A DNA stretch of 64,000 bases, taken from positions 1,056,001 to 1,120,000 of the forward strand of contig CAWCKJ010000004.1 of NCBI GenBank assembly GCA_963796105.1, in the 5' to 3' direction. The notes beneath the pieces were generated by a model, which saw only the letters and a list, made by a program, of their open reading frames with translations, had not been told where the DNA came from and did no database searches. The position numbers and the translations under genes were made by a program. The stretch comes from a candidate division FCPU426 bacterium. Lineage in GTDB: Bacteria; Oederibacteriota; Muellerivitia; Muellerivitales; Muellerivitaceae. Below, in pieces: positions 8,608-31,905 of the stretch. Each line of letters opens with the position of its first letter. Position 1 is the first letter of the stretch.

Positions 8608-8623
8608 TATGACTAAGATCATG
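8608..8623. promoter_or_regulatory. Candidate Crp/Fnr-type site TATGACtaagATCATG with -10 TAAAAT at 8645-8650
   Basis: Palindrome between the divergent crp/fnr and ric-like genes; spacing fits a class II (-41.5) site. Confidence 0.65.
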
Positions 8624-8681
8624 GGTTACCGGATAAGGGATGCCTAAAATGAAACAAATTAAGTTTTATAGGGGGGCTGGA

Positions 8682-9236
8682 TTGAAATCGGAAAAGAAAC
8701 TGGAAGAAACCACCCGATGGAAGAACAAATCCATTGGGGAGATTATCGACTTCATCTTAATAAACCACCACGCGTACACCCGTAAGCAGATGAAACGCCT
8801 CCTGGGTTTTTCTGGGAAATCAGTCAAAGCCTATGGGACGAAACATCCCGAACTTCTTCAACTGCACATGATTTTAATGGAAATGAGCGAGGAACTGGAA
8901 GGGCACATGAGCCGGGAGGAAAAAGAGGTATTTCCTTTTTTGAATAAATTGGCCCAAACCACCGGAAAGGCGAGGAAAAAGGCCGAGCCTCCCCCCAACC
9001 GGAAGGCCGGGGACCGTTTGATCCATATCCTGATGTGGGAACACGGCATGACCGGCGAGGAATGGCTGGAAATACACAGGCTCACCAAGGATTTCAACAC
9101 CCCCCCCGACGCCGGAACACCCTACAAATCGCTATACCGGGGGCTGAAGGAAATGGAGGACGACCTCCACCAGCACATCCACATTGAGAACAACGTGCTG
9201 TTCCACCGGATCGTGGAGATGGGATTTTTAAATTGA
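8682..9236 (+). CDS. Ric/YtfE-like di-iron hemerythrin protein (no N-terminal ScdA domain)
   Basis: HHAYTR...HPEL...HMSREEKEVFP...EH...DLHQHIHIENNVLF. A TTG start at 8682 follows GGGGGG (the ORF extends to 8640). Confidence 0.85.
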   Translation: MKSEKKLEETTRWKNKSIGEIIDFILINHHAYTRKQMKRLLGFSGKSVKAYGTKHPELLQLHMILMEMSEELEGHMSREEKEVFPFLNKLAQTTGKARKKAEPPPNRKAGDRLIHILMWEHGMTGEEWLEIHRLTKDFNTPPDAGTPYKSLYRGLKEMEDDLHQHIHIENNVLFHRIVEMGFLN

Positions 9237-9464
9237 TTTTTTAAATTCAAGTTTTATCACATGCCGATCTAACATTAATCTTTTAGGTAGGTCGGTATAG
9301 TGCCGATTTCAACGTCTGTCTTATGGTGTATCGGCACAGGGGCACAGAAACCCAGCTAAACAAACCGAACTTATGAAATATAAGTATTGTTTTTACCTCT
9401 AAGGAATAAAAAAATTTAAGTTTTCTGAAAAAGGGGAGGGAAGCTGAATTACAGGTGACGACTG

Positions 9465-10316
9465 ATGAGTCATAAAACCCATAGGGACTTGAGGGGCCTG
9501 TCTCCCGGCGAGCGGTACCAAACAATCCTTCAAGCTTTCGAAAGCCTGAAACCGGGGGACGCTTTTGAGATGGTGACGGAGCATGATCCTGAGACCTTGC
9601 GGTACCAGCTTCAAAAGGAAAAACCACGGCAGTTCCGTTGGGAATGCGATAAAAGGGGCCAAGAAACCTGGAAGACCACCATTGTGAGGGTTCCGGAAGG
9701 CATGGGAGAGGTCGGGGACGGCGGTCCTATTCCCCAGCCCAAGGTCCAAGAAAAACCGGATTGGGTCAAGAGCCTCAATCCTTCATGCGGCATTTACCTC
9801 GATGTGCGTCCCATGGTTGAAAAAGAGCTGGAACCCTTCCAAGTCATTTTGAAGACCCTCAAGGAGTTGAAGCCGGGCCAGCACTTTCAACTGGTGGACT
9901 CCTTGGAGTCGGAAGCCCTTTACCCCGTATTAGGCAGGATGGGTTTCATCCATTACACTGAATTCCAGGATGGGGCCTGGAACTGCTATTTCAAGAAAGC
10001 CCCGGAAATGGAAGAGACGGCCCATGAGAATGCCGAAACCGCCGGATCCGGGACTCTTTTCAACAAGATGATGGGAGTCCAGCCGAGGTTGGAGCTGGAT
10101 GTCCGGAACCTTCAGCCCCCTTTGCCTCTCATGAAAATCCTGGAAAACCTGCCGGCCATAGCCGAAAAGGGCGTGCTTTTGGTGCACCACCAGAAGGAAC
10201 CCCTGCAGCTCATGGATAAACTCCGGGAGAGCGGGTTCGAGGCGGTCAGCCGGAAACTTGGGGAGACCCACTACCAAATCCTGGTTTGGAAAAAATATCG
10301 ACCCATTCCCCGTTGA
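9465..10316 (+). CDS. DUF2249 (SirA/TusA-like) repeat protein, three domains
   Basis: Three (L/R)D(L/V)R..L.P-type units with HDPETL, ESEALY and KEPLQL. Confidence 0.75.
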   Translation: MSHKTHRDLRGLSPGERYQTILQAFESLKPGDAFEMVTEHDPETLRYQLQKEKPRQFRWECDKRGQETWKTTIVRVPEGMGEVGDGGPIPQPKVQEKPDWVKSLNPSCGIYLDVRPMVEKELEPFQVILKTLKELKPGQHFQLVDSLESEALYPVLGRMGFIHYTEFQDGAWNCYFKKAPEMEETAHENAETAGSGTLFNKMMGVQPRLELDVRNLQPPLPLMKILENLPAIAEKGVLLVHHQKEPLQLMDKLRESGFEAVSRKLGETHYQILVWKKYRPIPR

Positions 10317-10367
10317 ATGGGGAAATCCCCAGGGAAAATCGTTAATTATCCGCCTTCGCCTGAACAC

Positions 10368-10548
10368 CCGCCTTCACTGAGGCTGGGGAGGACAGGCCCC
10401 GGTCTTCGCCCTACGCTAAAGCTACAGGCGACAGGTGGCCGGGGATGAATGGCTGAAGTAAGGGCTACGGTGGATTCCGCATGCGTATTGTCGGCGGATA
10501 CCCACCAAAGCCGCCTTTCCTCTGAAGCCTTGCGAAAGAGGATGGCGG
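10368..10548. repeat. Cluster of REP-like palindromes
   Basis: cgccctacgctaaagctacaggcg nested in ccccgg..ccgggg; ggtggattccgc..gcggatacccacc; ccgcctttcctctgaagccttgcgaaagaggatggcgg. Confidence 0.55.
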
Positions 10549-10662: not shown

Positions 10663-10678
10663 TATGACCATAGTCATG
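10663..10678. promoter_or_regulatory. Candidate Crp/Fnr-type site TATGACcataGTCATG with -10 CATAAT at 10700-10705
   Basis: Palindrome with the same 21-bp gap to a -10-like hexamer as the 8608 site. Confidence 0.7.
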
Positions 10679-10734
10679 CAAGCCCCAGATGGGTCCTCCC
10701 ATAATAAAATCGATATTCAAAGGGGAGATGAGAC

Positions 10735-11463
10735 ATGAGGAAAGATTCCATGATTACGAAAGCCAAGAAAAAGAATGTTTTCCGGGACAGGGAGGAATCG
10801 GCCAGGGGGCTTTGCGAGAAGATGATGAACTACCGGAGCTTGCATCCCCTGGTCCTGGCGTTAAACCCCGAGGCTGTAGGCATGGGGAGGCTGGTGGCCC
10901 ATTATTTGAAGGGCGACCTGGATGTGATACTCTCCCAGCCCCTTTACTCCCGCGAGAATCCTCTGGCCCAAGCGGGGGCGGTCAGCGAAAAGGGAGCCTT
11001 TTACCAGAATCAAGTAAAAGCCGGCTCCAGGACCGCGGGGTCTTATTGCGAGGAAGAGGCCCAGCAAGGGATTCGGAACATGGAACAAAGGCGCAAGGTT
11101 TTCACGCCGGGGAAACCCCCGCGGAGCGCCCATTACCGCGTCGTGATCCTGGTGAGCGACGGAATGGCGGCGCAATGCGTCCTGATAGCGGCCCTGCGGC
11201 AAGTGGACTCTGAGCACCCGGCCAAAATCGTGGTTGCCACGGCGGCGGCCACGCCGGAAACCCTGGAATTTCTTAGGCAGGAAGCCGAGGAGTCTTTCGT
11301 GCTGATGGTGAAACCCGAGGCGGAAACCCTAAGGGATTTATACGAGAAGGCCGCCCCCATCGAGGATGAGGAAGTCGCTCATATCCTCGAAAATCCCCAG
11401 CCTATCCTGGAGCCAAGCCGGATTTTCCGCGCGGATTCCATGGATATCAACCTGGAAGATTAA
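10735..11463 (+). CDS. Phosphoribosyltransferase-like protein (degenerate PRPP loop)
   Basis: FRDREESAR...PLVLAL...VVILVSDGMAA...PAKIVVA...DEEV matches the putative PRTase family. Confidence 0.7.
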   Translation: MRKDSMITKAKKKNVFRDREESARGLCEKMMNYRSLHPLVLALNPEAVGMGRLVAHYLKGDLDVILSQPLYSRENPLAQAGAVSEKGAFYQNQVKAGSRTAGSYCEEEAQQGIRNMEQRRKVFTPGKPPRSAHYRVVILVSDGMAAQCVLIAALRQVDSEHPAKIVVATAAATPETLEFLRQEAEESFVLMVKPEAETLRDLYEKAAPIEDEEVAHILENPQPILEPSRIFRADSMDINLED

Positions 11464-13338: not shown

Positions 13339-13355
13339 AGATATCCAAACTGTGG

Positions 13356-14705: not shown

Positions 14706-15497
14706 ATGAGTCATATTAAAACCGTCTTTTTTCCTCTCACTTTCATCTCATGCAATCTTCTCTTCGCCCAAAATGGGCCCTGGTTCCCTCCGAACGCGTC
14801 CCTGGAAGGCGGCCGCATCGATAAACTGGTGATCTTTTCCTTCTGGGTGACAGGCTGTTTCTTCGCGGTGGTGGTTCTCGCCATGATCTTTTTCACCTTC
14901 CGCTACCGCAACAGGGAAGGCCACAAGGCCTTCTACACCCACGGCACCGGCATGGTAGAGCGGCTCATCACCTTCGCGCTGGCTGCCACTGTCTTCGGGG
15001 TCATCGACATGAACGTTATCCACCGCTCCAACGAGGACTACGACAACCTGCTCGGGAAGAACCTCGATAAGTCCAAGGCCCTCCGGGTCGAAGTGCAGGG
15101 CCGGCAGTTCGAGTGGCGCATCCGCTACTCCGCCGACAACCGGCACTTCGGGACGCCCCAGGACATCACGACCCTCAACCAACTGCACCTGCCCGTGAAC
15201 CGGCCCATCCTCGTGCAGGTCACCTCGGCCGACGTCATCCACAGTTTCTACCTCCCCAATTTCAGGGTGCGGCAGGACGTGGTCCCGGGCCTGGTATCCC
15301 AGCTCGGCTTCCAGGCGGTTCAGAAGGGCCCCTTTACCCTGGCCTGCTCGGAACTTTGCGGCCTGGGCCATTACCGTATGAAGGGCTACGTGACGGTGGA
15401 GGATGAGGCGGATTTCGAGAAGTTCCTGGCAGACGCGGCTAAAAACACGGATAAGGATCCGGCTAACAACTGGGGCTGGGCTTGGGAGGATCGATGA
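14706..15497 (+). CDS. coxB: Cytochrome c oxidase subunit II
   Basis: QFEW, DVIHSF and CSELCGLGHYRM CuA motif. Confidence 0.95.
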   Translation: MSHIKTVFFPLTFISCNLLFAQNGPWFPPNASLEGGRIDKLVIFSFWVTGCFFAVVVLAMIFFTFRYRNREGHKAFYTHGTGMVERLITFALAATVFGVIDMNVIHRSNEDYDNLLGKNLDKSKALRVEVQGRQFEWRIRYSADNRHFGTPQDITTLNQLHLPVNRPILVQVTSADVIHSFYLPNFRVRQDVVPGLVSQLGFQAVQKGPFTLACSELCGLGHYRMKGYVTVEDEADFEKFLADAAKNTDKDPANNWGWAWEDR

Positions 15498-17212
15498 TGG
15501 ATGAACAATACCTTCATGAGGCGCCGACGAATTTCATAACGAAGTATGTTTTCTCAATGGACCACAAGGTGATCGGGCGCCAGTTCCTTTTTTACGGCCT
15601 GTTTTTCCTGCTGTTGGGGGGAATCATGGCCTACCTGATCCGCTGGCAGCTAGCCTATCCCTGGACGCCCGCGCCGGTTTTCGGCAGGCTTTTCTTCCCC
15701 TCCTCGGGTGGGGCCGTCACCCCTGAAATCTACACCACCCTCATCACACTTCACGGGACCATCATGATCTTTTTCGCCATCACCCCCATCGTGATCGGGG
15801 CCTTCGGCAATTTCCTGATACCCCTGCAGTGCGGGGCCAGGGACATGGCATTCCCAATTTTAAACATGCTTTCCTTCTGGCTCATGCCCATCGCGGGAGC
15901 CTTCCTGATGGTGGCTTTTTTCTCCGAGCAGGCCGCCGCCGCGGGTTGGACAGGATACCCTCCCTTGAGTTCATCCGCCTACACACCCGGGGCGGGAGAG
16001 AGCGCCTGGGCCTTGAGCCTCATTTTCCTGGGGACCTCCTCCATTATGGGAGGCATCAACTACGTCACCACCGTCCTGAACCTCAGGGCCAGGGGTCTTT
16101 CAATTTGGAAGCTCCCTTTAACCATTTGGGGATTATTCCTCACCGCAGTCCTGAACTTGGCCTTCGTCCCGGTCATCGCCATTGGATTGGTAATGCTGCT
16201 CTTTGACCGTACCTACGGCACCCACTTTTTCACCGGGGTGGCCATCACCGGCGAGCAGGCTGGCCAGCCCCTTTTATACCAGCACATCTTCTGGGCCTTC
16301 GGGCACCCCGAGGTTTACATCCTTATACTTCCGGTGTGGGGGATGGTTTCCGATATTCTCTCCGTTTTCTCGCGGAAGCCCGCTTTCGGCTACAGGCTAA
16401 CGGCGCTTTCCATGCTCACTATCACCCTCCTGAGCGCGGTGGTTTGGGGCCACCACATGTTCATCTCCGGCATGAGCCCGGCCCTGGGGAAAGCCTTCCA
16501 ATCCCTCACGATGCTTATCTCGATCCCCTCCTCCATCTTTTTCTTCAACTGGCTGGCCACGATGTGGCGGGGCAACCTGAAGTTCGCCACTCCCATGCTT
16601 TACGCCATGGGAGTTATCTTTGTTTTCGCCATTGGCGGGCTAACCGGAATCCTGCTGGCCTCCCGCACGATGGACATCTACCTTCACGGAAGCTATTTTG
16701 TGGTGGCCCACTTCCATTTCACCATGGCCATGTCGGTATTCCTGGGGTCCTTCGCGGCGATTTATTTCTGGTACCCGAAATTATTCGGCAGGGAGATGAA
16801 CGAGACTCTCGGGAAAATCCATTTCTGGATCACTTTTGTCTCGGTCAACGTGGTGTTCCTGGTCATGTTTAGGGTCGGGCTCGCGGGATTGATGCGGCGC
16901 GTGGCGGACCCCACGGCCTATGAGGTTTTCAAGCCCCTCCAGCCCTTGAACCAGGTCATCACCTACGGCGTGATCGTCCTGGGGATTTCACAGCTTATCT
17001 TCATCTGGAACTTCTTTTACAGCATGTCCCGCGGCAAAAAAGCTGCGGAAAACCCCTGGAACGCCGCGACTTTGGAATGGACGGTTCCATCCCCGCCGCC
17101 GCATGAGAATTTCCCGGGTGAATTGCCGGTGGTTTACAACGGACCCCATGAGTACGGCAACCCCCTGGCCCAGGGGAAAGACTTCCTTCTTCAGACTGAA
17201 AAGGCGGGATAA
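15494..17212 (+). CDS. coxA: Cytochrome c oxidase subunit I, type A1
   Basis: DHKVIG, HGTIMIF, GHPEVY, WGHHM and HFHF; ATGA overlap with the coxB stop. Confidence 0.96.
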   Translation: MMDEQYLHEAPTNFITKYVFSMDHKVIGRQFLFYGLFFLLLGGIMAYLIRWQLAYPWTPAPVFGRLFFPSSGGAVTPEIYTTLITLHGTIMIFFAITPIVIGAFGNFLIPLQCGARDMAFPILNMLSFWLMPIAGAFLMVAFFSEQAAAAGWTGYPPLSSSAYTPGAGESAWALSLIFLGTSSIMGGINYVTTVLNLRARGLSIWKLPLTIWGLFLTAVLNLAFVPVIAIGLVMLLFDRTYGTHFFTGVAITGEQAGQPLLYQHIFWAFGHPEVYILILPVWGMVSDILSVFSRKPAFGYRLTALSMLTITLLSAVVWGHHMFISGMSPALGKAFQSLTMLISIPSSIFFFNWLATMWRGNLKFATPMLYAMGVIFVFAIGGLTGILLASRTMDIYLHGSYFVVAHFHFTMAMSVFLGSFAAIYFWYPKLFGREMNETLGKIHFWITFVSVNVVFLVMFRVGLAGLMRRVADPTAYEVFKPLQPLNQVITYGVIVLGISQLIFIWNFFYSMSRGKKAAENPWNAATLEWTVPSPPPHENFPGELPVVYNGPHEYGNPLAQGKDFLLQTEKAG

Positions 17213-17273
17213 AAAGGTTCCAGCCTGTTAGGCCGGGATTTTAGGTGGTAATGTTAATTTAAAAGGGGAAACA

Positions 17274-17861
17274 ATGAGCGCGGACGCGTCGGTTTATCCA
17301 AACACTTCCACTGGCGTGCCTTCCGCCAGGCTGGGGATGATCATCTTCCTGGCCTCCGAGGTCATGATGTTCGCCACCCTCATCGCGGGCTACCTGGTAT
17401 TGAGGTCCAGCCAAACACTCTGGCCCCCCCAGGGGCAGCCTGCTTTGAACGTCCCCATGACCGCCATCAATACCTTCTTCCTGGTTTCCAGCAGTTTCAC
17501 CCTTCATTTCGCGGAAAAGTTCTACGGCCAAAGATCCCTGGGGAAATTTCTCGGCTTTCTCGGCGCGTCGATCCTCCTGGGTGTTCTTTTCCTTTCCATC
17601 CAGGCCTATGAATACAGCCGCCTGGTCGCGGAGGGTTTAAGCCTTTCCTCCAGCACCTACGGCTCGGTGTTTTTCACACTGACGGGTTTCCACGGGTTCC
17701 ACGTCCTGGTGGGGATCACGCTCATGAACATCGTTTTCTGGCGCGCGAACTCGAGGAACCTGACCACCGCCAGCCACGCCTTTGTGGAGAATGTCGGGTT
17801 ATACTGGCATTTCGTGGATATCGTTTGGATCGTGCTTTTCTCAATGCTTTACCTTTGGTGA
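17274..17861 (+). CDS. coxC: Cytochrome c oxidase subunit III
   Basis: FLASEVMMF, TGFHGFHV and YWHFVDIVW. Confidence 0.95.
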   Translation: MSADASVYPNTSTGVPSARLGMIIFLASEVMMFATLIAGYLVLRSSQTLWPPQGQPALNVPMTAINTFFLVSSSFTLHFAEKFYGQRSLGKFLGFLGASILLGVLFLSIQAYEYSRLVAEGLSLSSSTYGSVFFTLTGFHGFHVLVGITLMNIVFWRANSRNLTTASHAFVENVGLYWHFVDIVWIVLFSMLYLW

Positions 17862-18142: not shown

Positions 18143-18158
18143 CATGACTTTTGTCACA
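18143..18158. promoter_or_regulatory. Candidate Crp/Fnr-type site CATGACttttGTCACA
   Basis: Near-consensus palindrome upstream of the YwiC-like gene. Confidence 0.55.
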
Positions 18159-18231: not shown

Positions 18232-19026
18232 ATGTTGCCTAAGGAACACGGGGCCTGGGTTGCTCTTTTAGTCTCTCTTTTTACGGGATGGATTGTCCTT
18301 GATTCCTTCCATCCTGCGGCATTCGCCGCGAGCCTTTTGTGGGTTTCGGGTTTCATCCTGCGCTCTCCGGCCTTGACCGCCCGGCAATACTGGAGGACGG
18401 ACCCCAGGCGGGCCAAGAAAGCCGCGGCTTTTTTCTTTTTCCTGTTAGCCCTATTCATCGGGTCGGCCATTGTTTTTTTCGGGGGAGCTCCCGCTCCCGA
18501 TATTCAACTGGTCCTGGGGGCGGGAATCCCGCTTGGATTGTTGATTTCCTTGATCGCGGCCTGGAGGAGAAACCTCAGGGCATTGTGGGTGGAAGTCCTG
18601 GGATTCGCGGCCCTTTGCCTACTCGCTCCAGCGGTTATTCTTTCCGATCCGAAAATGGAACTGGCCGGAGCCCTTCAAATTTATGTTTTATCCGCCGGGT
18701 ATTTTATCCTGGCGCTTTTTTACGTGAAGGTCCGGCAGAATTGGCTGGCACGGTCCAGGTCCGGGGAAAAATTCACCTGGGTGTCACGGGCTCGTTCAGG
18801 GATGGGAACCTGTCTGGCCCATATTTTATTCCTAATCATAGTAGCTGCCTTCGCGCCTTTTCCTTTTCTGGTCCTGGGACCGCTTTGGGCCGCGGCCAGG
18901 ATAGGGTTTGGGATTTTCCTGGGAAAACCGGATCTTCCTATCATGAAATTGGGCGTCCGGGAGATGATCCATTCACTGGTTTATTTTGGGATCACCGTGG
19001 TTATATGGAAATTTCATTTTTCCTGA
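18232..19026 (+). CDS. YwiC-like membrane protein
   Basis: N-terminal P(K/R)EHGAW motif, FYVK, K.G..E and multiple TM segments. Confidence 0.75.
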   Translation: MLPKEHGAWVALLVSLFTGWIVLDSFHPAAFAASLLWVSGFILRSPALTARQYWRTDPRRAKKAAAFFFFLLALFIGSAIVFFGGAPAPDIQLVLGAGIPLGLLISLIAAWRRNLRALWVEVLGFAALCLLAPAVILSDPKMELAGALQIYVLSAGYFILALFYVKVRQNWLARSRSGEKFTWVSRARSGMGTCLAHILFLIIVAAFAPFPFLVLGPLWAAARIGFGIFLGKPDLPIMKLGVREMIHSLVYFGITVVIWKFHFS

Positions 19027-19056: not shown

Positions 19057-19572
19057 TTAATTTTCCTCGTCACTGGCAAGGTTGGGAGTGTCCTGTATGG
19101 CATAGGTCAAAAGACGGCAAAGCTGGTTTTTTTCCTTCTCCTCCACCACCCGGTCCAGTTCGGGATATAAAATCCGGTTTTCCCGCACCGAATGCTGTTC
19201 CATGTATTTCTTGAATTGGGCCTCATCGTCGAATAGGGCGATGATTTCCTTCCAATTGGAGTCGCTTCGGCTCAATCGGGAGGCCCTCAGGACCAGGCGG
19301 TTGAACCACTCCGTAATTTTCTGGTGGTCCGAGGAAAAAGCCTCGGTTTCCCCTCCGTGAACCTGCGCGGCCCTCTGCTGGTAGAGCGGAAGAAGAATCT
19401 CATCCTCCTCCTTCATGTGGTTGAAAAGGGCTTTTCCCAAGGTCTTCAACATGGCCCTGGCTTGGGTGTAATCACCCTTGAGGATTGCAACCTGATGGTT
19501 CTCGAACAAGTCGTGCATTTCGAGGTGGATCTGGTTCAATTCCAGAAGAGTATGTGGGTGGTTTTCCGCCAT
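19057..19572 (-). CDS. Hemerythrin (HHE) domain protein
   Basis: H...HQ...HMKEEDEILLP...DH...HSVRENRILYP; paralogue of 3967-4443. Confidence 0.85.
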   Translation of the reverse strand: MAENHPHTLLELNQIHLEMHDLFENHQVAILKGDYTQARAMLKTLGKALFNHMKEEDEILLPLYQQRAAQVHGGETEAFSSDHQKITEWFNRLVLRASRLSRSDSNWKEIIALFDDEAQFKKYMEQHSVRENRILYPELDRVVEEKEKNQLCRLLTYAIQDTPNLASDEEN

Positions 19573-21292: not shown

Positions 21293-21760
21293 CTAAGCGA
21301 CCCCGGAAGTCAGGTTGGTTTGAAGATACTTGAAAACCAGCCTACGCAGCTTTTCACAGTTTTCCCCATAAGCGTAAAGCTGGCATCGCCCTCCCCTGGA
21401 GGGGTTGAACTCGACCACCAGTGTGGCCGGGGAACCGGGCGGGAGCTGGGTGATAAATTTCGAGAGCTCGCAGTTCTCCAGGATCAAGCGGACATTGCGC
21501 AAACCCTCCAAACGATGAATCTCCAAATCGTTGTGGGCCAGGAATTGCCTGGCTTCCAAACAGTATTCTTTCGAGAAAAACCAAAGACTGTCCCACTCGG
21601 TTATTTTTTGGTTTTCCTCGTTGGATTGGGAGACGAAGACGTCCTCAATGGGCTCGGGAACCAAACGGGAGGAGAATTGAAGGATATCCTTAAGCCTATT
21701 GAGGTTGGGTTCCGAGATCAGCCCCATTTTTTTGAAATACTCGTCAAAAGACTCATTCAT
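21293..21760 (-). CDS. Hypothetical protein
   Basis: 155 aa ORF with a GGAGAG RBS, preceded by a perfect TATGAC-N4-GTCATA site. Confidence 0.7.
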   Translation of the reverse strand: MNESFDEYFKKMGLISEPNLNRLKDILQFSSRLVPEPIEDVFVSQSNEENQKITEWDSLWFFSKEYCLEARQFLAHNDLEIHRLEGLRNVRLILENCELSKFITQLPPGSPATLVVEFNPSRGGRCQLYAYGENCEKLRRLVFKYLQTNLTSGVA

Positions 21761-21823: not shown

Positions 21824-21839
21824 TATGACTTCTGTCATA
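21824..21839. promoter_or_regulatory. Perfect palindrome TATGACttctGTCATA
   Basis: Read directly from the sequence; intergenic. Confidence 0.7.
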
Positions 21840-21953: not shown

Positions 21954-22181
21954 TTAAGGATATTTTTTTGATTTTCTTTTAAGCGCGGGATTGGGTTTGA
22001 GCGGTTTCAGCGTTGGATGCGGGGCTTCTTTTGGTGAATCGCTTTGTTGTTTCAACCATGAGTGGTATCCGGAATGAGGTGCGGGGGATGGGTTTGTATT
22101 TTTGCCGTTAAAACCCAGGGTCGCGGCTTTCCACTTTCGGTGTTGTTCCTCGAAAAAACTTTTCAGAATTTTGGAATCCAT
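21954..22181 (-). CDS. Small basic hypothetical protein
   Basis: MDSKILKSFF... with AGGTG upstream; no family recognised. Confidence 0.4.
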   Translation of the reverse strand: MDSKILKSFFEEQHRKWKAATLGFNGKNTNPSPAPHSGYHSWLKQQSDSPKEAPHPTLKPLKPNPALKRKSKKYP

Positions 22182-22241
22182 AAAACACCTGGCTAAAATG
22201 AAGTGCTTAAAAGTAAAGTACTTGACAGACGACTGTTGTAT

Positions 22242-22257
22242 TATGACGTAAGTCATA
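22242..22257. promoter_or_regulatory. Perfect palindrome TATGACgtaaGTCATA upstream of acs
   Basis: Read directly from the sequence; intergenic. Confidence 0.7.
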
Positions 22258-22414: not shown

Positions 22415-24394
22415 ATGACACCGCAGGAACAGTCCATCACAACATTTCAAAAGGATTCCCAGATTTTCCCGCCGCCACAGGACGTGGCAGCGAAAGCTTT
22501 TATAGGATCATTTAAAAAATACCAGGAGATGTACGACCGTTCAATCAAGGATTCCAAGGGGTTTTGGCTGGAGCAAGCCAATTCCGAACTTCAATGGTTC
22601 AAGAAGCCGGCGAAGGCGCTGGAATACACCTGGGACACGGCTAAAAGGGTTATCCAGCACACCTGGTTCGAGGATGGCGAGTTGAACCTTTCCGTGAATT
22701 GCCTGGACCGCCATCTCGCCAAGCTCGGGAACAAGGTCGCGATCCTATGGCAGGGCGAGAAGGATGAGGAAGTCCGTAAGATCACCTATATCGAACTGCA
22801 CAAAATGGTCTGCCAGTTCGCCAACGTTCTCCTGGCGAAAGGCATCAAAAAAGGGGACCGCATCTGCGTTTATATGCCCATGATCCCAGAGGCGGCGGTC
22901 GCCATCCTAGCCTGCGCCAGGGTGGGTGCCATCCACTCCTTCGTTTTCGGCGGGTTCAGCTCCGAAGCGTTGAAAACCCGAATCCAAGACTCCGAGAACA
23001 ACATGGTCATCACCACAGACGTGAGCTACAGGGCGGGGAAATCCATCGGCCTGAAAACCATCGTGGATGAGGCCATGAAGGAATGCCCCTCGATCAAGAG
23101 CGTGATCGTGTACCAAAGGGGCGATGGCAAGGTTAACATGCAATCCGGGCGCGATTCCTGGTGGCATGACGACATCAAGAACGCCAGCCCCAAGCACGAG
23201 GCCCAGCCCATGAAGGCCGAGGATCCTCTTTTCATCCTTTACACATCGGGTTCCACGGGAAAGCCCAAGGGCGTCCTGCACACCACGGCGGGATACCTCC
23301 TACACTCTGCCATCTCCTTCAAGTACATCTTCGATTACCATCCGGAAGACATTTACTGGTGCACCGCCGACATCGGCTGGGTGACGGGGCATAGCTACAT
23401 CGTTTACGGGCCACTGGCCAACGGAGCCACCACCCTGATGTTCGAGAGCGTTCCCACTTATCCGGACGCCGGGAGGTTCTGGCAGGTCGTCGCCAAACAC
23501 AAGGTTACCATCTTCTATACCGCTCCCACGGCTGTCCGGTCCCTCATGCGCGAGGGCGAGCAGTGGCCCAACAAGCACGACCTCAGCTCCCTGCGGATCC
23601 TGGGTTCGGTGGGTGAGCCCATCAATCCCGAAGCGTGGCTCTGGTACCACCGCAATATCGGGAAAGGCCGCTGTCCCATTGTGGATACCTGGTGGCAGAC
23701 CGAAACGGGGGGCATTTTAATCACGCCCCTTCCGGGCGCCCATACGCTGAAACCCGGGAGCGCCTCGCGGCCCTTCTTCGGCGTGGAACCCGTGGTGATG
23801 GACAACAATAACAAGGAATGCGCGGTGAATGAGGGCGGAAAACTCTGCATCAAGAAGCCCTGGCCCGGGATGGCACGCACCATGTGGGGCGACCACAACC
23901 GCTTCATCGACACCTACTTCACGGCTTTCGCCGACCTTTACTACACCGGCGACGGCTGCCGGGTGGACACGGATGGGGACTATTGGCTCCTGGGCCGGGT
24001 GGATGACGTGGTGAACATCTCGGGACACCGCATTGGCACCGCCGAGGTGGAAAGCGCCCTTGTTTCCCATCCCAAGGTCTCCGAGGCCGCGGTGGTGGGT
24101 TACCCGCACGACATCAAGGGCTCGGCGCTTTACGCCTACGTGACCCTCAAGGAAGGCGTGACGCCCTCCGAGGAATTGAAGAAGGAACTGGTCCAGCACG
24201 TGCGCAAGGAAATCGGGCCGATCGCCCAGCCGGACAAGATCCAATTCGCCGAGGGAATGCCCAAGACCCGGAGCGGCAAGATCATGCGCCGGATCCTTCG
24301 AAAAATCGCCGAGAACGACACGAGCAACCTGGGGGACACCTCGACACTGGCCGATCCGAGCGTCGTGGACAAGCTGGTGAAAGGGAAGCTGTAA
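22415..24394 (+). CDS. acs: Acetyl-CoA synthetase (AMP-forming)
   Basis: [20 protein letters not shown] and [20 protein letters not shown] before 22415. Confidence 0.97.
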
Positions 24395-24536: not shown

Positions 24537-26108
24537 TCAGAACCGATACCAGGCCGAGACTTGGCAGCGATGGCCCAGCCAAAGCTGGTCCGTTTCGCCC
24601 GCGTGTATATAATTCGTGGCGATTCTGGCGTATTCCACGGCCACCCGGATGTTGCTGGTGAAGTCGTGCATCAGGTTTGCGAACATGACCTGGTCGTCGT
24701 TGTAGGACCCGGCAACCAATGCAGGCGTCTTCAACGTTGGGCTCCAGGCCGACAAGCCCCCGATATTGGGGGAGAAAATCTCCCCGTAACCCACCGTCAG
24801 GAAGGTGCCCCAGCTCTTGGGCCCGTGGATCTGGACCTGTCCGTTCCAGCTTTGCACCTTGATGAGGGTGAAATTGTTGTTGGGGTCGAACCCCGCGATT
24901 CCGGCGTCCAGGTTCGGAGCGGCGGTGCCACTTGCTGAATTATTTGCGTTAGCCAGTGCCGGCAGGCCGCCCGTCCAGTAGGGGAACATGTCCCCATCGC
25001 CGGTGCCAGTGGTCCATTCGCCAGTCGCCACGGCAGAAGGACCATCCTCGCCGTCAAAGGGAAGAAGCGGGATCAAGGCGTCAATCGCCAGACTTTGAGC
25101 CCAAGTGTAGTTATTCAAGTCATAATTACCTGGATTGTCACCGCTGGTGGGCCAGGTATAGTTCCTGTCGGTACCGGAAACAACTACGCTGAAAGGAACG
25201 GTGTTGACGGGGCCTGTGGCCAAACCAAAACGCCCATTCCAACCGCCGATGCTGAATTTCAACGCGCCATTCAGGTTGGGGGTTTGCGAGTCGCGCTGTT
25301 CGGGCCGGTCGGCCGAAACGGCGAGCTGTACCTTCACGTCCTCCCCAAGTCCCAAGGTGTCGGAAACACGTAGCTGGGGAGTCCGCTCGTAGAGTACGCC
25401 CATGTAGGGGGCCACGGAAACGGAGGCCAGGATATATTCCATGTTCCACCCGAACAAAGTCCAATATTGCCCGGCCATGATATTCAAACCGTCCTTCTCG
25501 GCCGAAACGTAGGCGTGGCGGAGGCCCAGGGTGGGATAGGTGTACCAACTCGCCTCAGAATAAGTCGAGGTCAGGCTGGTCGGGGCGGACATGTAAGTAG
25601 GTGCCGGGTCATAACCCTTGAAGTCAACCTCGACGTAACCCTTGGTCTTCCAGCCGTCGATCAGCGGGGCCGTGGCCAGGAAGGAAAGACGCGAGTCCCT
25701 CATGGAGGCCAGGGATTCCCCGTTGTTGCCGGTATAAGTTCCGGCCTTCAGGACGGGACCATTCCCTACTACCTCGGCGAAGGAGTGCGTGTCATCCTGG
25801 ATCGCGTCCAGTTCGGCGAATCCATGGATCTCGACTTTCACCGCGTTTTCCAAAGCCGAAACCTTTTTGGATAAGGACTCCAGGGATGGAGTCTCGGCTG
25901 AAGGGACTGCCTTAGTGACTGCCGTAGGGACGGCGGTCGGCGCGGTTGTTGGAACAACCGCCGAGGCCGCCGGAGCTGGGGCAACCGCGGCCGTTTTTGT
26001 CACGGCCTGAGCTGGCGCGATGTTGTCCGCCAGTGCAGGGGAAGCTGACAGGATCAGGGAAACCCAACCAGCCGTGACCCAAAACATTAAAAACAAAATC
26101 CGTTTCAT
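24537..26108 (-). CDS. Outer-membrane porin, DcaP-like
   Basis: Signal peptide, Ala/Pro/Thr linker and short coiled coil, then SRLSF, GYVEVDF, LRHAY, AGQYW, RTPQLR and a C-terminal YRF. Confidence 0.7.
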   Translation of the reverse strand: MKRILFLMFWVTAGWVSLILSASPALADNIAPAQAVTKTAAVAPAPAASAVVPTTAPTAVPTAVTKAVPSAETPSLESLSKKVSALENAVKVEIHGFAELDAIQDDTHSFAEVVGNGPVLKAGTYTGNNGESLASMRDSRLSFLATAPLIDGWKTKGYVEVDFKGYDPAPTYMSAPTSLTSTYSEASWYTYPTLGLRHAYVSAEKDGLNIMAGQYWTLFGWNMEYILASVSVAPYMGVLYERTPQLRVSDTLGLGEDVKVQLAVSADRPEQRDSQTPNLNGALKFSIGGWNGRFGLATGPVNTVPFSVVVSGTDRNYTWPTSGDNPGNYDLNNYTWAQSLAIDALIPLLPFDGEDGPSAVATGEWTTGTGDGDMFPYWTGGLPALANANNSASGTAAPNLDAGIAGFDPNNNFTLIKVQSWNGQVQIHGPKSWGTFLTVGYGEIFSPNIGGLSAWSPTLKTPALVAGSYNDDQVMFANLMHDFTSNIRVAVEYARIATNYIHAGETDQLWLGHRCQVSAWYRF

Positions 26109-26268: not shown

Positions 26269-26284
26269 TATGACTTGTGTCATA
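26269..26284. promoter_or_regulatory. Perfect palindrome TATGACttgtGTCATA
   Basis: Lies between the divergent porin and CoA-transferase genes. Confidence 0.7.
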
Positions 26285-26573
26285 GATATTGAATGATCTT
26301 TGGTCGGGAAAATAATTCCGTGCTATAGTGATTGGGTATTCCCTCCCGAAAAATTTATTCGTGAAATAAATCGGATCGGCATTTATTTATCGTCCGGGGG
26401 ATTTTTTTTGTCTGGAGCCTTGGAACCGGGGAAAAACCCGGTTTTATGGTTTCCGCCGGTTAAAAACAACCGCCGGGAATGAATTCGAGAGCTTTTTGGG
26501 TTAAAAATGCAATGGGCATGAGTCCCGCAGGCTGGTACCGCCCTTGCCAAATTGTTGAGGACCTAAATTCATC

Positions 26574-28469
26574 ATGGAAGCAGAACGCCAAAATTTCTTC
26601 GAAAAACTAAAAATGGAGTATCCCTCCAAGTTTTCCAATGAAGACAACATCTTCAAGCATATCCATCCAGGCGACCGGATCTTCATCGCCACAGGCTGTG
26701 GGGAACCACAATACCTGGTTGGTGCCCTGATCCAGTTCGTCGAAAACCACCCCAAGGCTTTTTTCGACACCGAAGTTATCCACGTCTGGACCCTGGGGCT
26801 GGCGCCTTACACCGACAAGAAATTCAAGCAGAATTTCCGGCATAATTCCTTCTTTATCGGCAATAACACCCGGGAATCGGTCAATCAGGGCCTTGCGGAT
26901 TACACCCCCATCTTCCTTTCCCAAGTACCCGACCTGCTCAAGCGAAAGGTGGTGCCGGTGGACGTGGCCTTGATCCAGACCAGCCTTCCCGACGCCCATG
27001 GGTTCATGAGCTTGGGGTTGAGCGTGGACATCACCAAGGCCGCCACCGAGAACGCGCGCCTGGTCGTCGCCCAGACTAACATCGAAATGCCCCGGACCCA
27101 CGGGGACACATTCATCCATATCAACGACGTGGACTTCGTCATCCGTCACGACGAACCTCTCTTGGAGTACGAACCCCAGGTTTCCGACGAAATCGCGCAA
27201 AAAATCGGGAAATTCGTGGCGCGTTTCATCGAGGATGGGGACACCATCCAGGTAGGTTATGGAAGTCTTCCCAACGCCATTCTGGCCAACCTGCGCGGAA
27301 AGAAACACTTGGGGGTGCATACCGAATTGATCTCGGACGGGATCGTGGATCTCATAAAAGAAGGGGTGATCGACAACTCCCTGAAAAACCTTAACCCGGG
27401 CAAGGCTATCGCCAGCTTTTGCATGGGCAAAAAGGCCACCTACGAGTATATCCACGACAATCCCAGCATCGAGTTCAAGCCCATTGACTACACCAATAAC
27501 CCGCTTGTGATCGCCAGCAACCACAACATGACCGCCATCAACACCGCATTGGCCGTGGATTTGACCGGACAATCCACCGCGGAATCCCTGGACCGCGTTT
27601 TTTTCAGCGGGGTGGGGGGCCAGGCGGATTTCATGCGGGGGGCGGTGCTTTCCCCGGGGGGAAAAACCATTCTCGCCATCCAATCCACCGCGGACAACGA
27701 AAAGGTCTCCCGGATCGTGCCCTTTCTCCACGAAGGGGCAGGGGTCACCCTGACCCGGGGAGACATCCAATACTTGGTCACGGAGTACGGCATCGCCTAC
27801 CTGCACGGGAAGAACGTGCGGGAACGCGCCATGGACATCATTTCCATCGCCCATCCCAAGTTCAGACCCTGGCTGATCGAGGAGTCCAAGAAAAACAACC
27901 TAATTTACCGCGACCAGGCTTTTATTCCGGGCAAGCGGGGAGAATATCCTGAGAGCCTTGAGACCCACCGTACCACCGAGTCGGAACTGCGTTTACTTAT
28001 GAGGCCCGTAAAAATCAACGATGAACCCCTGTTGAAGGATTTCTTTTATTCCCTTTCTGACCAGAGCACCTACCGCCGGTTCATGTCGGTGCGCCGTGAC
28101 ATGCCCCATGAGAGACTCCAGGAATTCGTGGTTATCGACTACAGCAAGGAAATGGTGATCCTGGCGATCCGGGAGGATCCGGAACGCGAGGAAATCGTCG
28201 GGGTCGGACAGTACGGCATCCAGGAAGACCGCCATGTTGCCGAGGTGGCCTTCGTAGTCAAGGACAGCTACCAGAACCAGGGGGTTGGGACCGAGCTCTT
28301 GGAGTACCTGACGGTACTGGCCAAGAAACAGGGGCTTTTTGGCTTTACGGCCGAGGTTCTTCCAGACAATACCGCCATGCTCCATCTTTTTGAGAGCCAG
28401 GGTTTTGACGTCGAGAAGCGAACCAGTTCAGATGTTGTGGATCTCAAGATGGCATTCAAGGCTGGATGA
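26574..28469 (+). CDS. Acetyl-CoA hydrolase/CoA-transferase fused to a C-terminal GNAT acetyltransferase
   Basis: LGVHTE, SGVGGQADFMRGA and VTEYGIA; GNAT part SLSDQSTYRRF...AEVAFVV...YQNQGVGT. Confidence 0.92.
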   Translation: MEAERQNFFEKLKMEYPSKFSNEDNIFKHIHPGDRIFIATGCGEPQYLVGALIQFVENHPKAFFDTEVIHVWTLGLAPYTDKKFKQNFRHNSFFIGNNTRESVNQGLADYTPIFLSQVPDLLKRKVVPVDVALIQTSLPDAHGFMSLGLSVDITKAATENARLVVAQTNIEMPRTHGDTFIHINDVDFVIRHDEPLLEYEPQVSDEIAQKIGKFVARFIEDGDTIQVGYGSLPNAILANLRGKKHLGVHTELISDGIVDLIKEGVIDNSLKNLNPGKAIASFCMGKKATYEYIHDNPSIEFKPIDYTNNPLVIASNHNMTAINTALAVDLTGQSTAESLDRVFFSGVGGQADFMRGAVLSPGGKTILAIQSTADNEKVSRIVPFLHEGAGVTLTRGDIQYLVTEYGIAYLHGKNVRERAMDIISIAHPKFRPWLIEESKKNNLIYRDQAFIPGKRGEYPESLETHRTTESELRLLMRPVKINDEPLLKDFFYSLSDQSTYRRFMSVRRDMPHERLQEFVVIDYSKEMVILAIREDPEREEIVGVGQYGIQEDRHVAEVAFVVKDSYQNQGVGTELLEYLTVLAKKQGLFGFTAEVLPDNTAMLHLFESQGFDVEKRTSSDVVDLKMAFKAG

Positions 28470-28470
28470 A

Positions 28471-30591
28471 ATGACAACAAAAACACCTGATATCAAAAGC
28501 CTTTTCGAGCCCAAAAGCGTGGCGGTGATCGGGGCATCCGCTCTTATGGATAAGATCGGTTACAAGATCGTGGACAACATCCTGACCGGCGGTTATAAGG
28601 GCCGGGTTTATCCCGTGAACCCCAAGGGAGGGGAAGTGCTGGGTCTTAAAATGAAGACCAGCCTTGCGGAAATCCCGGAGCCGGTGGACATGGCCTGCAT
28701 CGTTATTCCGGCCAAACTGGTCATGGATTCCGTCAAGGCCTGCGCGAAAAACGGTACAAAGTTTCTATCCATCATTACCTCCGGTTTTTCCGAAGTGGGC
28801 AACGCGGAGGAGGAAAAATCCATCGTCACTTTCTCCCGCGATAATGGCATGCGCGTCCTAGGGCCCAATATTTTTGGAATTTACTCGGCTAAAGCCTCCA
28901 TGAATGCCATGTTTGGACCCAGGGTCCAAAGCGGGAACGTGGCCATCATCACCCAGAGCGGAGCGCTTGGAATCGGGATGATCGGGAAGACCGCGGTGGA
29001 TCACATCGGCCTTTCCGCCATGGTTTCCGTGGGAAACAAGGCCGACCTGACCGAATCGGACCTGCTGGACTATCTCGCCGATGACCCCCTCACCAAGGTC
29101 ATCATGCTTTATGTGGAGGGCATTCGGGACGGGGAGAGGATGGTCGCCGCCATGGCCCGGGTAGCCCGAAAGAAACCTATCGTATTGATCAAATCGGGAC
29201 GCTCCAAGCGGGGCGCCATGGCCGCCGCCTCCCACACCGGCGCCCTCGCAGGGTCCGATGAGATCCTTAACGACATCGTCAAACAATGCGGCGTTTTGAG
29301 GGCCGAGAATATCCAGGACGCCTTCAACTGGTGCAAGTTTTTCACCTGTAGCGCCACTCCAAGGGGCGAGAACACAGTCATCATCACCAACGGCGGCGGA
29401 ATCGGGGTCATCACCACCGACGCCTGCGAGAAATACCAGGTCCAGCTTTATGACGACTCGCAGGTCATGAAGAAGATCTTCGTCAAGGCGGTCCCAGATT
29501 TTGGCTCCCTCAAGAACCCCATCGACCTCACAGGCCAGGCTAGGTCCGAGGATTACAACGCGGCCATGGACGCGGCCCTGAGCAACGAGAATATCCATTC
29601 CGTGATCGGCCTTTACTGTGAAACTGCGGTTTTTGACGTGAACAACCTAGCCACCATGATCCGCGAGAACACCGTGCGCTACCAAAAAGGAGGTAAACCC
29701 ATCCTATTCTCCATCTTCGGAGGAGAGGCCACCGAGAACTGTATCCTTTCGCTGCGCAAGGACAACGCTCCGGTGTTCCCGGACGTGTATGAGGCCGTTT
29801 CCTGCTTGGGGTCCCTGATGACCCAGTACCGCCACACCCTGACACCCCCGACCCTTCCAGAGGAAGCGACGGTCCCGGTCCGGGAAGTGGAAGCCATCCT
29901 GGACAAGGCCCGGCAGGAGGGGCGTTATTTCCTCCTGGCCCACGAGGGCCAGAAGCTCATGGAGCTTTGCGAAATCCCCATTCCCCAGAGCGCCGTGGCG
30001 CGAAGCCTGGAGGAAGCCGTCAAGGCCGCGGACAAGATCGGCTACCCGGTCGTGATGAAAGTGATCTCCCGCGACATTCTTCACAAGAGCGACGTGGGCG
30101 GGGTAGCCCTGGACCTGGAGAACCCCAAGGAAGTCATGGACGCCTACGAGGCGATCCTGCATAACTGCCGGAACCATAATCCCCGCGCGGTCATCGAGGG
30201 CATGGAAGTCTCCGAGATGGTGAAGCGCGGCATCGAGACCATCGTGGGCGCCAGGCGCGACGCCTCCTTCGGGCCCATCGCCATGTGCGGTATGGGAGGC
30301 ATTTACGTGGAAGTCATGAAGGACGTGGCATTCCGGGCGGTTCCTTTTTCCCGCCAGGAGGTTCTTTCTATGATCAAGCAAACCCGGATCTATCCGCTGC
30401 TGTTGGGGGTCCGGGGTGACGAGAAGAAGGACATTGAGCGGGTGATCGACGCGATCATCCTGCTGGGTTCCCTGGTGCGGCAATGCCCGGGGATATCCGA
30501 CATTGAGGTGAACCCCCTGGTGGTGTACGATCAGGGGAGCGGGATCAAGGCTGTGGACGTGCGGGTACTTTTATCGGAGAGGCGCTTGTAA
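28471..30591 (+). CDS. Acetate--CoA ligase (ADP-forming), fused alpha/beta
   Basis: VAVIGAS, YPVNP, GPN, TQSGA, ASHTGAL (phospho-His), NPID and the ATP-grasp HKSDVGGV and EVNPL. Confidence 0.92.
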   Translation: MTTKTPDIKSLFEPKSVAVIGASALMDKIGYKIVDNILTGGYKGRVYPVNPKGGEVLGLKMKTSLAEIPEPVDMACIVIPAKLVMDSVKACAKNGTKFLSIITSGFSEVGNAEEEKSIVTFSRDNGMRVLGPNIFGIYSAKASMNAMFGPRVQSGNVAIITQSGALGIGMIGKTAVDHIGLSAMVSVGNKADLTESDLLDYLADDPLTKVIMLYVEGIRDGERMVAAMARVARKKPIVLIKSGRSKRGAMAAASHTGALAGSDEILNDIVKQCGVLRAENIQDAFNWCKFFTCSATPRGENTVIITNGGGIGVITTDACEKYQVQLYDDSQVMKKIFVKAVPDFGSLKNPIDLTGQARSEDYNAAMDAALSNENIHSVIGLYCETAVFDVNNLATMIRENTVRYQKGGKPILFSIFGGEATENCILSLRKDNAPVFPDVYEAVSCLGSLMTQYRHTLTPPTLPEEATVPVREVEAILDKARQEGRYFLLAHEGQKLMELCEIPIPQSAVARSLEEAVKAADKIGYPVVMKVISRDILHKSDVGGVALDLENPKEVMDAYEAILHNCRNHNPRAVIEGMEVSEMVKRGIETIVGARRDASFGPIAMCGMGGIYVEVMKDVAFRAVPFSRQEVLSMIKQTRIYPLLLGVRGDEKKDIERVIDAIILLGSLVRQCPGISDIEVNPLVVYDQGSGIKAVDVRVLLSERRL

Positions 30592-30592
30592 A

Positions 30593-31624
30593 ATGAAAAC
30601 AATCGTCATTGGATCCAGCGAAAAAAGCGCCGGGAAAACCGGCGTGATCTTGGGCTTGCGCGGCGCCCTGGGAAAGGGGGCGGGGTACATGAAGCCCCTC
30701 GGCGACCGGCTGATCTACCGCAAAAAGCAGTTGTGGGACTACGATTCGGCCCTCGTCACTAACCTTTGGGGCCTGAAGGAGAATCCCGAGGACATCTCCA
30801 TCGGTTTCGAGCATGCCAAGCTCAAGTACAAGTACGACGCTGAAACCACCGTCGAGAAGGTGCACGAAGTGGCGGCCCGGGCGGGCTCAGGTAAGGACAT
30901 CCTCTTCGTGGAGGGCGGGAACCAGTTGGGGTACGGCTTGTCCGTGCACCTGGACGCGGTTTCAGTGGCGAAGGCCCTGAAAGGGGACCTGGTGATCGTG
31001 GTGAGCGGATCCGAGAGCTCCATCGCGGATGATTTATATTCCATCAAAAGAAACCTGGACCTCCAGGGGGTGAACTTCAAGGGAGTCATTCTCAACAAGA
31101 TCCACGATCTCCAAGATTTCAAGGATACGCATCTGCTGGGCCTCGAGAAACTGGGTATGCCGATTCTCGGACTCATCCCTTACAAGAAGGAACTCACTCA
31201 TTTCACTATGGGCTACCTTGCGGACATTCTTTTCTCCAAGATCCTCGCCGGGGAGGAAGGGCTGTCGAACCCGGTGGAGCATATCGTGATCGGGGCCATG
31301 TCGGTGGGAAGCGCCCTGCGCGAGACTTCCTTCATGAAGGAACATAAACTGGTCATCACCGCGGGAGACAGGACGGACATGATCCAGGCGGCCTTTGAGG
31401 GAAAAACCTCCGGCATCATCCTGACCAACAACATCCTGCCGCCCCCGAATATCATCGCCCGGGCAACCGAGTTGAAGATTCCCTTGCTCTTGGTGTCCAC
31501 CGATACCTTCTTGACGGCCAAGCACGTGGATTCCATGGAGCCGCTCCTCACCAAGAATGACCAGGTCAAAGTCGGGTTGTTGACCCAGTTGGTCAAGGAC
31601 CACGTGGATTTGAAAAAGTTCTAA
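30593..31624 (+). CDS. Phosphotransacetylase N-terminal-like protein (BioD-like P-loop + DRTGG), no catalytic PTA domain
   Basis: SAGKT, YMKP, VEG, IGAM and ITAGDRTD. Confidence 0.85.
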   Translation: MKTIVIGSSEKSAGKTGVILGLRGALGKGAGYMKPLGDRLIYRKKQLWDYDSALVTNLWGLKENPEDISIGFEHAKLKYKYDAETTVEKVHEVAARAGSGKDILFVEGGNQLGYGLSVHLDAVSVAKALKGDLVIVVSGSESSIADDLYSIKRNLDLQGVNFKGVILNKIHDLQDFKDTHLLGLEKLGMPILGLIPYKKELTHFTMGYLADILFSKILAGEEGLSNPVEHIVIGAMSVGSALRETSFMKEHKLVITAGDRTDMIQAAFEGKTSGIILTNNILPPPNIIARATELKIPLLLVSTDTFLTAKHVDSMEPLLTKNDQVKVGLLTQLVKDHVDLKKF

Positions 31625-31791
31625 TACTTTTTCAGTTCTTTTAATCTCGGTCTGATTGAGGACTAACGTTCCTGGATGGATGTTTCGGGTTTGTTAAATG
31701 ACCGATCGGGAAACACCCAATTCTTATTAATCTTCACTCCAAATTTCTCCGAAAATAAAAAAATGTCTTGTTTGGTTTTCTGGTTGTTTTT

Positions 31792-31857
31792 TGTGGATAA
31801 AATCATCAAAACAAATCAAGGAACATGAAAAATAAAGGGATTTAAGCTTGTGGATAA
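31792..31857. promoter_or_regulatory. Two perfect DnaA boxes (TGTGGATAA at 31792 and 31849) in an AT-rich spacer
   Basis: Exact reverse complement of TTATCCACA, twice. Confidence 0.4.
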
Positions 31858-31889
31858 CTTTTTTACCTTATCCCTCCCCTGGATTTTTT

Positions 31890-31905
31890 TATGAGTTCGG
31901 TCATA
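31890..31905. promoter_or_regulatory. Candidate Crp/Fnr-type site TATGAGttcgGTCATA
   Basis: Near-consensus palindrome upstream of the second Crp/Fnr gene. Confidence 0.6.

Follow-up and report, generated by a model that had tools for sequence, protein, structure and literature searches.

We identified TATGAC-N4-GTCATA as a palindromic box associated with promoters in a 64,000-nucleotide stretch (the window) from the 4.98 Mb genome of a candidate division FCPU426 bacterium of the family Muellerivitaceae (GCA_963796105.1, positions 1056001-1120000 of contig CAWCKJ010000004.1, here C4). On balance, comparative sequence analysis suggests that the box marks a family-conserved set of class II promoters, which would be bound by CrpB, a Crp/Fnr protein encoded in the window (32036-32734, plus strand), and activated at low oxygen by way of a cofactor attached to cysteines of its effector pocket. 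In the proposed mechanism, the box would act genome-wide at class II spacing, and CrpB would bind it to switch on genes for hydrogenases, fermentation, cytochromes, heme and stress, sensing low oxygen through a cofactor held by four cysteines where CRP binds cyclic AMP (cAMP). Activation by CrpB is deduced from the class II geometry. For a lineage that has not been cultured, such a regulon would provide a regulatory map open to testing, comprising the genes likely to be switched on as oxygen falls, with functions in hydrogen cycling, fermentation, extracellular electron transfer modules and oxygen-independent heme synthesis. The RpoB of the source genome is not close to that of any named organism; its nearest named matches come from candidate division FCPU426 (66%), Firestonebacteria (62%) and NC10 (59%), which likely places the bacterium in FCPU426 or in a sister lineage.

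Genome-wide enrichment and promoter geometry of the box

The first-pass annotation of the window had proposed a candidate regulon, and the intergenic enrichment expected of one was found throughout the genome. The genome contains 4 perfect copies of the box and 12 with one mismatch, and 15 of the 16 are located in non-coding DNA upstream of a gene. This class, defined as lying within 300 bases 5' of a gene, makes up 10.8% of the genome according to our own simple gene calls (3,472 genes, 75% coding, with some real genes missed). Spacers of 2, 3 and 5-8 nucleotides gave 0-3 upstream matches each, and 180 palindromes with permuted half-sites gave a mean of 1.5. Within the window, 11 matches with at most two mismatches were found, against a mean of 0.67 and a maximum of 3 in 100 shuffles. 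A chance origin was ruled out by the shuffles, the spacer controls and the permuted palindromes. The sole permutation to beat the box, GTATAC-N4-GTATAC with 63 upstream matches, mostly represents repeated insertion-sequence ends with identical flanks. A repeat or structured RNA was also rejected, since the sites vary in flanks and centres and the window has no Rfam match, as was a NikR site, which the half-site resembles, because of the N4 spacing and the position of most sites away from nickel genes.

We also built a scoring matrix from other genomes, using 22 sites that lie close to their crpB homologues. All 18 hits scoring at least 16 bits fell in non-coding DNA, as did 25 of the 33 scoring at least 14 bits, although this matrix, trained elsewhere, is not fully independent, its sites having been selected by likeness to the TATGAC-N4-GTCATA consensus.

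The geometry of the sites is that of a Crp/Fnr-type box at class II promoters, as the first-pass annotation had suggested. Among 28 site-gene pairs chosen by distance alone, a -10-like hexamer (nAnnnT) occurs 20-22 bp 3' of the box in 21, with 13 at exactly 21 bp, whereas 5000 shuffles averaged 6.9 and never exceeded 15. This spacing places the centre of the box at -41.5, the class II position. In three relatives (15 of 26, 15 of 31 and 14 of 14 sites examined), class II geometry in at least one direction was seen at 36 of 44 sites, a count made without a shuffle control.

CrpB as the candidate reader

Three clear Crp/Fnr genes are present in the genome. The earlier proposal that one of the two such proteins in the window reads the box is supported, and can be narrowed to the CrpB type rather than CrpA (7849-8538, minus strand). 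A box lies within 300 bases 5' of crpB in all 13 relatives whose orthologue has at least 66% identity, and in none of the 9 whose best match has 54-63%. We then counted one-mismatch sites in 24 family relatives, of which 21 carry a CrpB-type gene and three do not. The former have 4-35 sites (median 14) and the latter 3, 2 and 0, the last of these genomes being 97% complete and the other two only 63% and 82%; since the relatives are kin and not independent, the counts do not constitute a statistical test. A reversed-pattern control gave 0-2 matches in 23 of the 24 relatives, 11 in G016 and 7 in the source genome.

Rodionov et al. (PMC1274295) link R180 of the regulator to a G in the box. CrpB has valine at CRP position 180 (V194), and its predicted pairing with an A-box, alongside an R180 protein with a G-box, fits the R180-G rule as given there. 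The Crp/Fnr recognition code would thereby gain a new pair of protein and DNA specificities, with an in-genome contrast of V180/A-box and R180/G-box. It is quite probable, judging from sequence patterns, that CrpB binds the box.

Another candidate for main reader is a cysteine-poor, FixK-like paralogue, with CrpB acting upstream or in parallel. A gene at 334.7 kb of contig C2 encodes the same VETCIR recognition helix as CrpB without the cysteines, and in G007 we counted 17 sites while both recovered paralogues are cysteine-poor. However, G007 is 85% complete, no box was found 5' of the paralogue of the source genome (best score below 0) as against 13/13 for crpB, and 11 of the 27 strong non-coding sites cluster within 50 kb around crpB, so that we regard this arrangement as quite unlikely. 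Two paralogues that share a helix within one genome, only one of them bearing the cysteines, recall Bradyrhizobium japonicum FixK2 and the FnrN-FixK pairs, but the box differs and neither a box nor a FixLJ-type link was found 5' of the cysteine-poor gene. The VET[C/S]IR subfamily is expanded in relatives (L227-L246), with a second cysteine-bearing copy in several genomes in addition to cysteine-poor copies.

Predicted targets and their conservation

Outside the window, strong boxes were found at a group 3b-type [NiFe] hydrogenase operon, an Ech-like membrane hydrogenase with hypAB, pyruvate:ferredoxin oxidoreductase (PFOR), a cytochrome c/Fe-S (iron-sulfur)/NrfD module, and cytochromes c beside a DmsE-MtrB pair. 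Further strong boxes precede an FAD/Fe-S oxidoreductase, Nramp, a B12 radical SAM enzyme, a nikR gene and qNor, and weaker ones occur at katG (12.9 bits), Dps (13.0 bits), an H+-pyrophosphatase and a second nikR. The box of the group 3b-type hydrogenase is kept in all four CrpB-bearing family relatives with the gene and is missing from G017, which lacks CrpB. The Ech-type hydrogenase box is found in 3 of 4 family relatives with the gene and the PFOR box in 5 of 8 CrpB-bearing ones. In relatives, boxes are also found at genes for AhbD-like heme synthases, zinc alcohol dehydrogenases, Rieske and heme-copper oxidase subunits, hemerythrins, RIC, YceI proteins, a recurring histidine kinase, GGDEF proteins, rhodaneses, DnaK and ClpB. 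The conserved core of the predicted regulon is anaerobic/micro-oxic energy metabolism, and the target set resembles FNR/FixK regulons.

Just 5' of the window (L046, G000:C4:1036001-1056000), a DmsE-type decaheme cytochrome and an MtrB/PioB porin are encoded along with three boxes, together with a Rieske-cytochrome b, an NrfD module and cytochrome c maturation genes; this gene set suggests extracellular electron transfer. At each of the two nikR genes (L052 and L059, with a TonB receptor or NicO 3'), the box is followed by a -10-like hexamer after 21-22 bp, which may tie nickel supply to hydrogenase expression. In G001, the first Ech-type hydrogenase gene (C57, L222) has an internal stop in its matched part and an intact box.

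CrpB fold, pocket cysteines and candidate signal

CrpB matches PF00027 and PF13545 above cut-off, giving a cyclic nucleotide-binding beta-roll plus a Crp-type helix-turn-helix. Its AlphaFold model (mean predicted local distance difference test score 82, falling to 69 in residues 91-100) is closest among solved structures to CRP and GlxR (Foldseek TM-score about 0.82, 22-24% identity). The recognition helix VETCIR is encoded at about 32615-32632, and the codons for C85, C96, C97, (C98) and C106 in the effector-pocket region lie at 32288-32353 (plus strand). C85, C96, C97 and C106 are present in 120/120 of the best homologues (the best 120 of 238). In a wider library, only 8 of the 117 single-domain representatives among the best 150 matches have at least three of the five cysteine positions, and the pocket-cysteine CrpB is thus a narrow subfamily.

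In a profile alignment with GlxR, G94-T95 falls on the G-E that binds cAMP and Y104-P105-C106 on R-T-S, with the cysteine run between; cAMP binding is therefore not expected and the cysteines would lie in the pocket region. E. coli CRP and Corynebacterium GlxR (TGTGA-N6-TCACA) share the half-site spacing of the CrpB system. However, their cAMP-binding Glu and Arg are replaced by Thr95 and Tyr104, so that CrpB shows G94-T95, Y104-P105-C106 and V194 in place of the CRP pocket G-E...R-S/T and the RExxR helix with its R180, and position 2 of the box is A in place of G.

E. coli FNR has in common with CrpB the Crp/Fnr fold, a V-E-T-x-x-R helix and four conserved cysteines, and its regulon shares the N4 spacing, the geometry at -41.5 and targets in anaerobic metabolism. 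The FNR box is nevertheless TTGAT-N4-ATCAA, which is not enriched upstream in this genome (1 of 19 perfect copies), and CrpB scores below the NCBIfam Fnr cut-off (42.5 against 228 bits). The FNR ligands are C20, C23, C29 and C122 according to PMC4214427, whereas CrpB has no cysteine before residue 85, and hence no N-terminal C-x2-C-x5-C plus C122 pattern, and its cysteines cluster in the pocket region. The FNR helix is ExSR according to PMC3590769, and ETCIR or ETSIR in the CrpB subfamily. CrpB has no cysteine after C197 and its box has A at position 2. FNR of the B. subtilis type has a C-terminal cysteine cluster and a TGTGA-N6-TCACA box.

HcpR of Geobacter/Desulfuromonas and cyanobacteria (predicted box wyTTGAC-N4-GTCAArw in Rodionov 2005) shares with CrpB the TGAC-N4-GTCA core, a non-Arg residue at position 180 and nitric oxide (NO)-related genes among its targets. 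CrpB does not resemble delta-proteobacterial HcpR in its box, and the TTGAC form is not enriched in the genome; hcp was not among the annotated box targets, although no search was aimed at it. The boxes given in the available parts of PMC1274295, PMC3590769, PMC4534486, PMC5701242 and PMC4214427 are TGTGA-N6-TCACA, TTGAT-N4-ATCAA, TTGAC-N4-GTCAA and GTAAC-N4-GTTAC. Our search found no description of TATGAC-N4-GTCATA (figures, supplements, RegPrecise and subscription papers were outside its scope) and none of pocket-cysteine Crp proteins in the literature searched. The class II Crp/Fnr regulon architecture is known, and the new parts are the box, the lineage and the cysteine arrangement.

Based on the target list, low oxygen is a reasonably likely signal. 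An oxygen-labile Fe-S cluster would be the simplest fit to four invariant cysteines and anaerobic targets, and we put the chances that the predicted cofactor is such a cluster at about even. More tentatively, CrpB could be an independently evolved FNR analogue, with an oxygen-labile Fe-S cluster bound in the pocket through C85/C96/C97/C106, its own box, and a role as the family's master aerobic/anaerobic switch; alongside it, a paralogue sensing NO would read a variant of the box that differs by one base. If Fe-S does sit on the pocket cysteines, the CRP scaffold would provide a further structural route to sensing oxygen, unlike that of FNR.

The cysteines of a box-reading CrpB might instead sense a metal (Cu, Zn or Ni), thiol oxidation, persulfide or NO. 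Cys-Cys pairs occur in metal and thiol sensors too, a copper-type P-ATPase adjoins crpB, and boxes lie 5' of the two nikR genes, Nramp, Dps and katG here and of rhodaneses and chaperones in relatives. Yet the top-scoring and most conserved targets are oxygen-sensitive or anaerobic (hydrogenases, PFOR, AhbD-like synthase), copA is absent from the box hit list and the katG and Dps sites are the weak ones noted above, which leaves this type of sensing unlikely compared with low oxygen.

Several observations weigh against an oxygen-responsive CrpB regulon, in addition to the incomplete CrpB-negative genomes, the kinship of the relatives, the consensus-seeded matrix, the paralogue with the identical helix and G007. 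The adjacent Cys-Cys is unlike the FNR ligand pattern. A genome of another family, G025, encodes a cysteine-bearing 55% homologue, yet has 2 sites against 3 in the control. PFOR has no box in 3 of the 8 CrpB-bearing relatives, and on the crpB side of the 31890 box no -10-like hexamer lies at 20-22 bp. Finally, some targets suggest more than oxygen by itself, namely katG, Dps, Nramp and nikR in the source genome, DnaK and ClpB in G003, and rhodaneses in G002 and G003.

CrpA and the G-variant box

CrpA (helix REVVSR, pocket AEIPVF..YP) is linked to NO reductase and RIC genes, with a variant box at ric and qnor. We compared 22 sites from the crpA/ric gap and qnor, including the two of the source genome and one (L132) that is probably spurious, with 14 sites upstream of crpB. 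Position 2 is G in 24/44 half-sites of the former and 1/28 of the latter, and the centre is 89% and 43% AT, respectively. The sequence GTGACTWAAGTCAC occurs in 9/14 CrpA-bearing relatives and in 2/10 without CrpA. It is likely that CrpA reads this predicted GTGAC-TTAA-GTCAC variant at NO-defense genes.

CrpA as reader of all the boxes, with the regulon as an NO-stress response, would account for the site 5' of crpA, for ric, hemerythrins and qnor among the targets, and for the occurrence of qNor in 10 family relatives, all of which carry CrpA. This is nonetheless highly improbable. A CrpA match is absent from 7 of the 21 CrpB-bearing relatives, which have 4-31 sites, the 31 being in G003 (98% complete). 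Furthermore, the ric and qnor sites differ from those of crpB in the G at position 2 and the AT-rich centre, and CrpA has R180, which selects G according to PMC1274295.

The two regulators probably meet at ric. The ric gene of G003 carries an A-box and the site at 8608 has A at both positions; we thus read 8608 as shared by CrpB and CrpA. As CrpA likely reads an overlapping G-variant at NO-defense genes, this site is probably dual-input.

DNR/NnrR-type NO sensors are closest to CrpA, not to CrpB. CrpA is likewise encoded beside ric, often with qnor, and co-occurs with qNor, but it has an RExxR helix and the GTGAC-TTAA-GTCAC box in place of TTGAT-N4-ATCAA. Its pocket sequence resembles that of these sensors. 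With this motif and the qNor co-occurrence, CrpA is likely to be NO-responsive and DNR/HcpR-like.

The crpA promoter (8538-8573, minus strand) is sigma-70-like, TTGAGC-N17-TATGAT, 6 bases before the ATG. TATGAT was found 6-9 bases 5' of the crpA ATG in 14/14 loci examined, pointing to a conserved, leaderless crpA transcript.

Sites in the window and the acetate genes

All eight boxes of the first-pass annotation are present where it placed them: three are perfect (21824, 22242 and 26269), three have one mismatch (10663, 19661 and 31890) and two have two (8608 and 18143). Its four quoted -10-like hexamers and their 21-22 bp spacings are also correct. Its description of the eight as intergenic holds given likely gene starts at 8538 and 22181. 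If the longest open frames (7849-8622 and 21954-22256) are taken instead, the sites at 8608 and 22242 overlap them. The start at 8538 is backed by orthologue alignments that begin there and by the conserved promoter, and that at 22181 is conserved in the same-genus relative G001. Seven of the eight sites have a counterpart in G001, where ywiC was not found. Three extra matches lie at 19096 (within the hemerythrin gene), 19771 and 53143.

The box at 8608-8623 in the crpA/ric-like gap has class II geometry towards ric, with TAAAAT after 21 bp (8645-8650, plus strand) and a predicted start near 8657, and has a counterpart in G001. In relatives, this position often carries the CrpA-linked variant box. 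No -10-like hexamer lies at 20-22 bp towards crpA. The earlier statement that both regulators have a site upstream is right as to the boxes at 8608 and 31890, but 8608 faces ric and not crpA. The ric-like gene (8682-9236, plus strand) encodes a RIC/YtfE-like di-iron protein that scores below the TIGR03652 cut-off and has no N-terminal ScdA domain, a domain that relatives' RIC proteins have.

The box at 10663-10678 is followed by CATAAT at 21 bp (10700-10705), has a counterpart in G001 and precedes a gene (10735-11463, plus strand) for a protein related to Thermus TT1426 (PDB 1wd5, E 1.5e-15; no Pfam match), which we take to be phosphoribosyltransferase-like. At 18143-18158, the box has an all-T centre, a GTCACA half-site and a weak -10, lies 5' of the gene for a YwiC-like membrane protein (18232-19026, plus strand) and is not conserved. 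Among the genes listed for co-control in the first-pass annotation, the redox-linked ones are supported and ywiC is not, as a box lies directly upstream of it in 0/10 relatives with upstream sequence.

A hemerythrin-domain protein (19057-19572, minus strand) is preceded by the box at 19661-19676, with TAGAAT (19638-19633, minus strand) after 22 bp and a counterpart in G001; the matching hemerythrin gene of G011 has a box upstream too. The degenerate box at 19771-19786 (two mismatches) lies 5' of a membrane histidine kinase gene (19873-21240, plus strand). Similar kinase genes recur 3' of relatives' boxes, and those boxes are strong. The perfect box at 21824-21839 faces a 155-aa gene (21293-21760, minus strand), with TATATA at 21 bp.

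The perfect box at 22242-22257 lies between a 75-aa open reading frame (21954-22181, minus strand) and acs, the AMP-forming acetyl-CoA synthetase gene (22415-24394, plus strand). Its hexamer towards acs is weak (GAGAAT at 20 bp), and that towards the 75-aa frame is conserved (TACTTT at 21 bp, class II spacing). The frame has no Pfam match and its first codons are conserved in G001, so it is likely an unannotated small gene.

The last perfect box (26269-26284) separates a gene for a porin-like outer-membrane protein (24537-26108, minus strand; DcaP/Porin_4 look-alikes, no Pfam match) from a cassette encoding a CoA-transferase-GNAT fusion, an ADP-forming acyl-CoA synthetase and a DRTGG/Pta-N-like protein (26574-31624, plus strand). 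Towards the porin-like gene there is a weak class II TGTAAT at 21 bp (26247), without the -11 A, and towards the CoA-transferase a conserved extended -10, TG-n-TATAGT, at 39 bp (26324-26329). Beyond the genus, the nearest homologue of the cassette (67%) belongs to G029, a genome of a different family, which suggests transfer. The box at 31890-31905 lies 5' of crpB.

The first-pass annotation had viewed these sites as a local, redox-driven acetate switch. The perfect boxes at acs and at the CoA-transferase cassette, both kept in G001, speak for it, as do G011 and G016, where ADP-forming acyl-CoA synthetase genes run divergently from crpB and a class II box is present. However, of 19 relatives examined only 2 (G001 and G008) keep the acs box, two others lacking upstream sequence, and only 1 of 4 keeps that of the CoA-transferase; the hexamer of the 22242 box towards acs is weak, while a conserved one faces the small divergent frame, and most sites are at non-acetate genes. 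An acetate switch as the core function is very unlikely; the acetate genes, including acs, are better described as putative lineage-specific recruits on the periphery of the regulon.

Besides ric, the window holds four hemerythrin-domain genes (among 3967-4993, 19057-19572 and 62405-63067), and a heme-copper oxidase operon (14706-17861) that is absent from the box hit list. It also carries VIT1, ZIP, SOD and a DUF2249-TusA protein. Two families of repeated insertion-sequence ends with GAATAC-N4-GTATAC occur at 35482-36428 of the window and in about 55 other places in the genome, and one such end adjoins an IS1595-family transposase.

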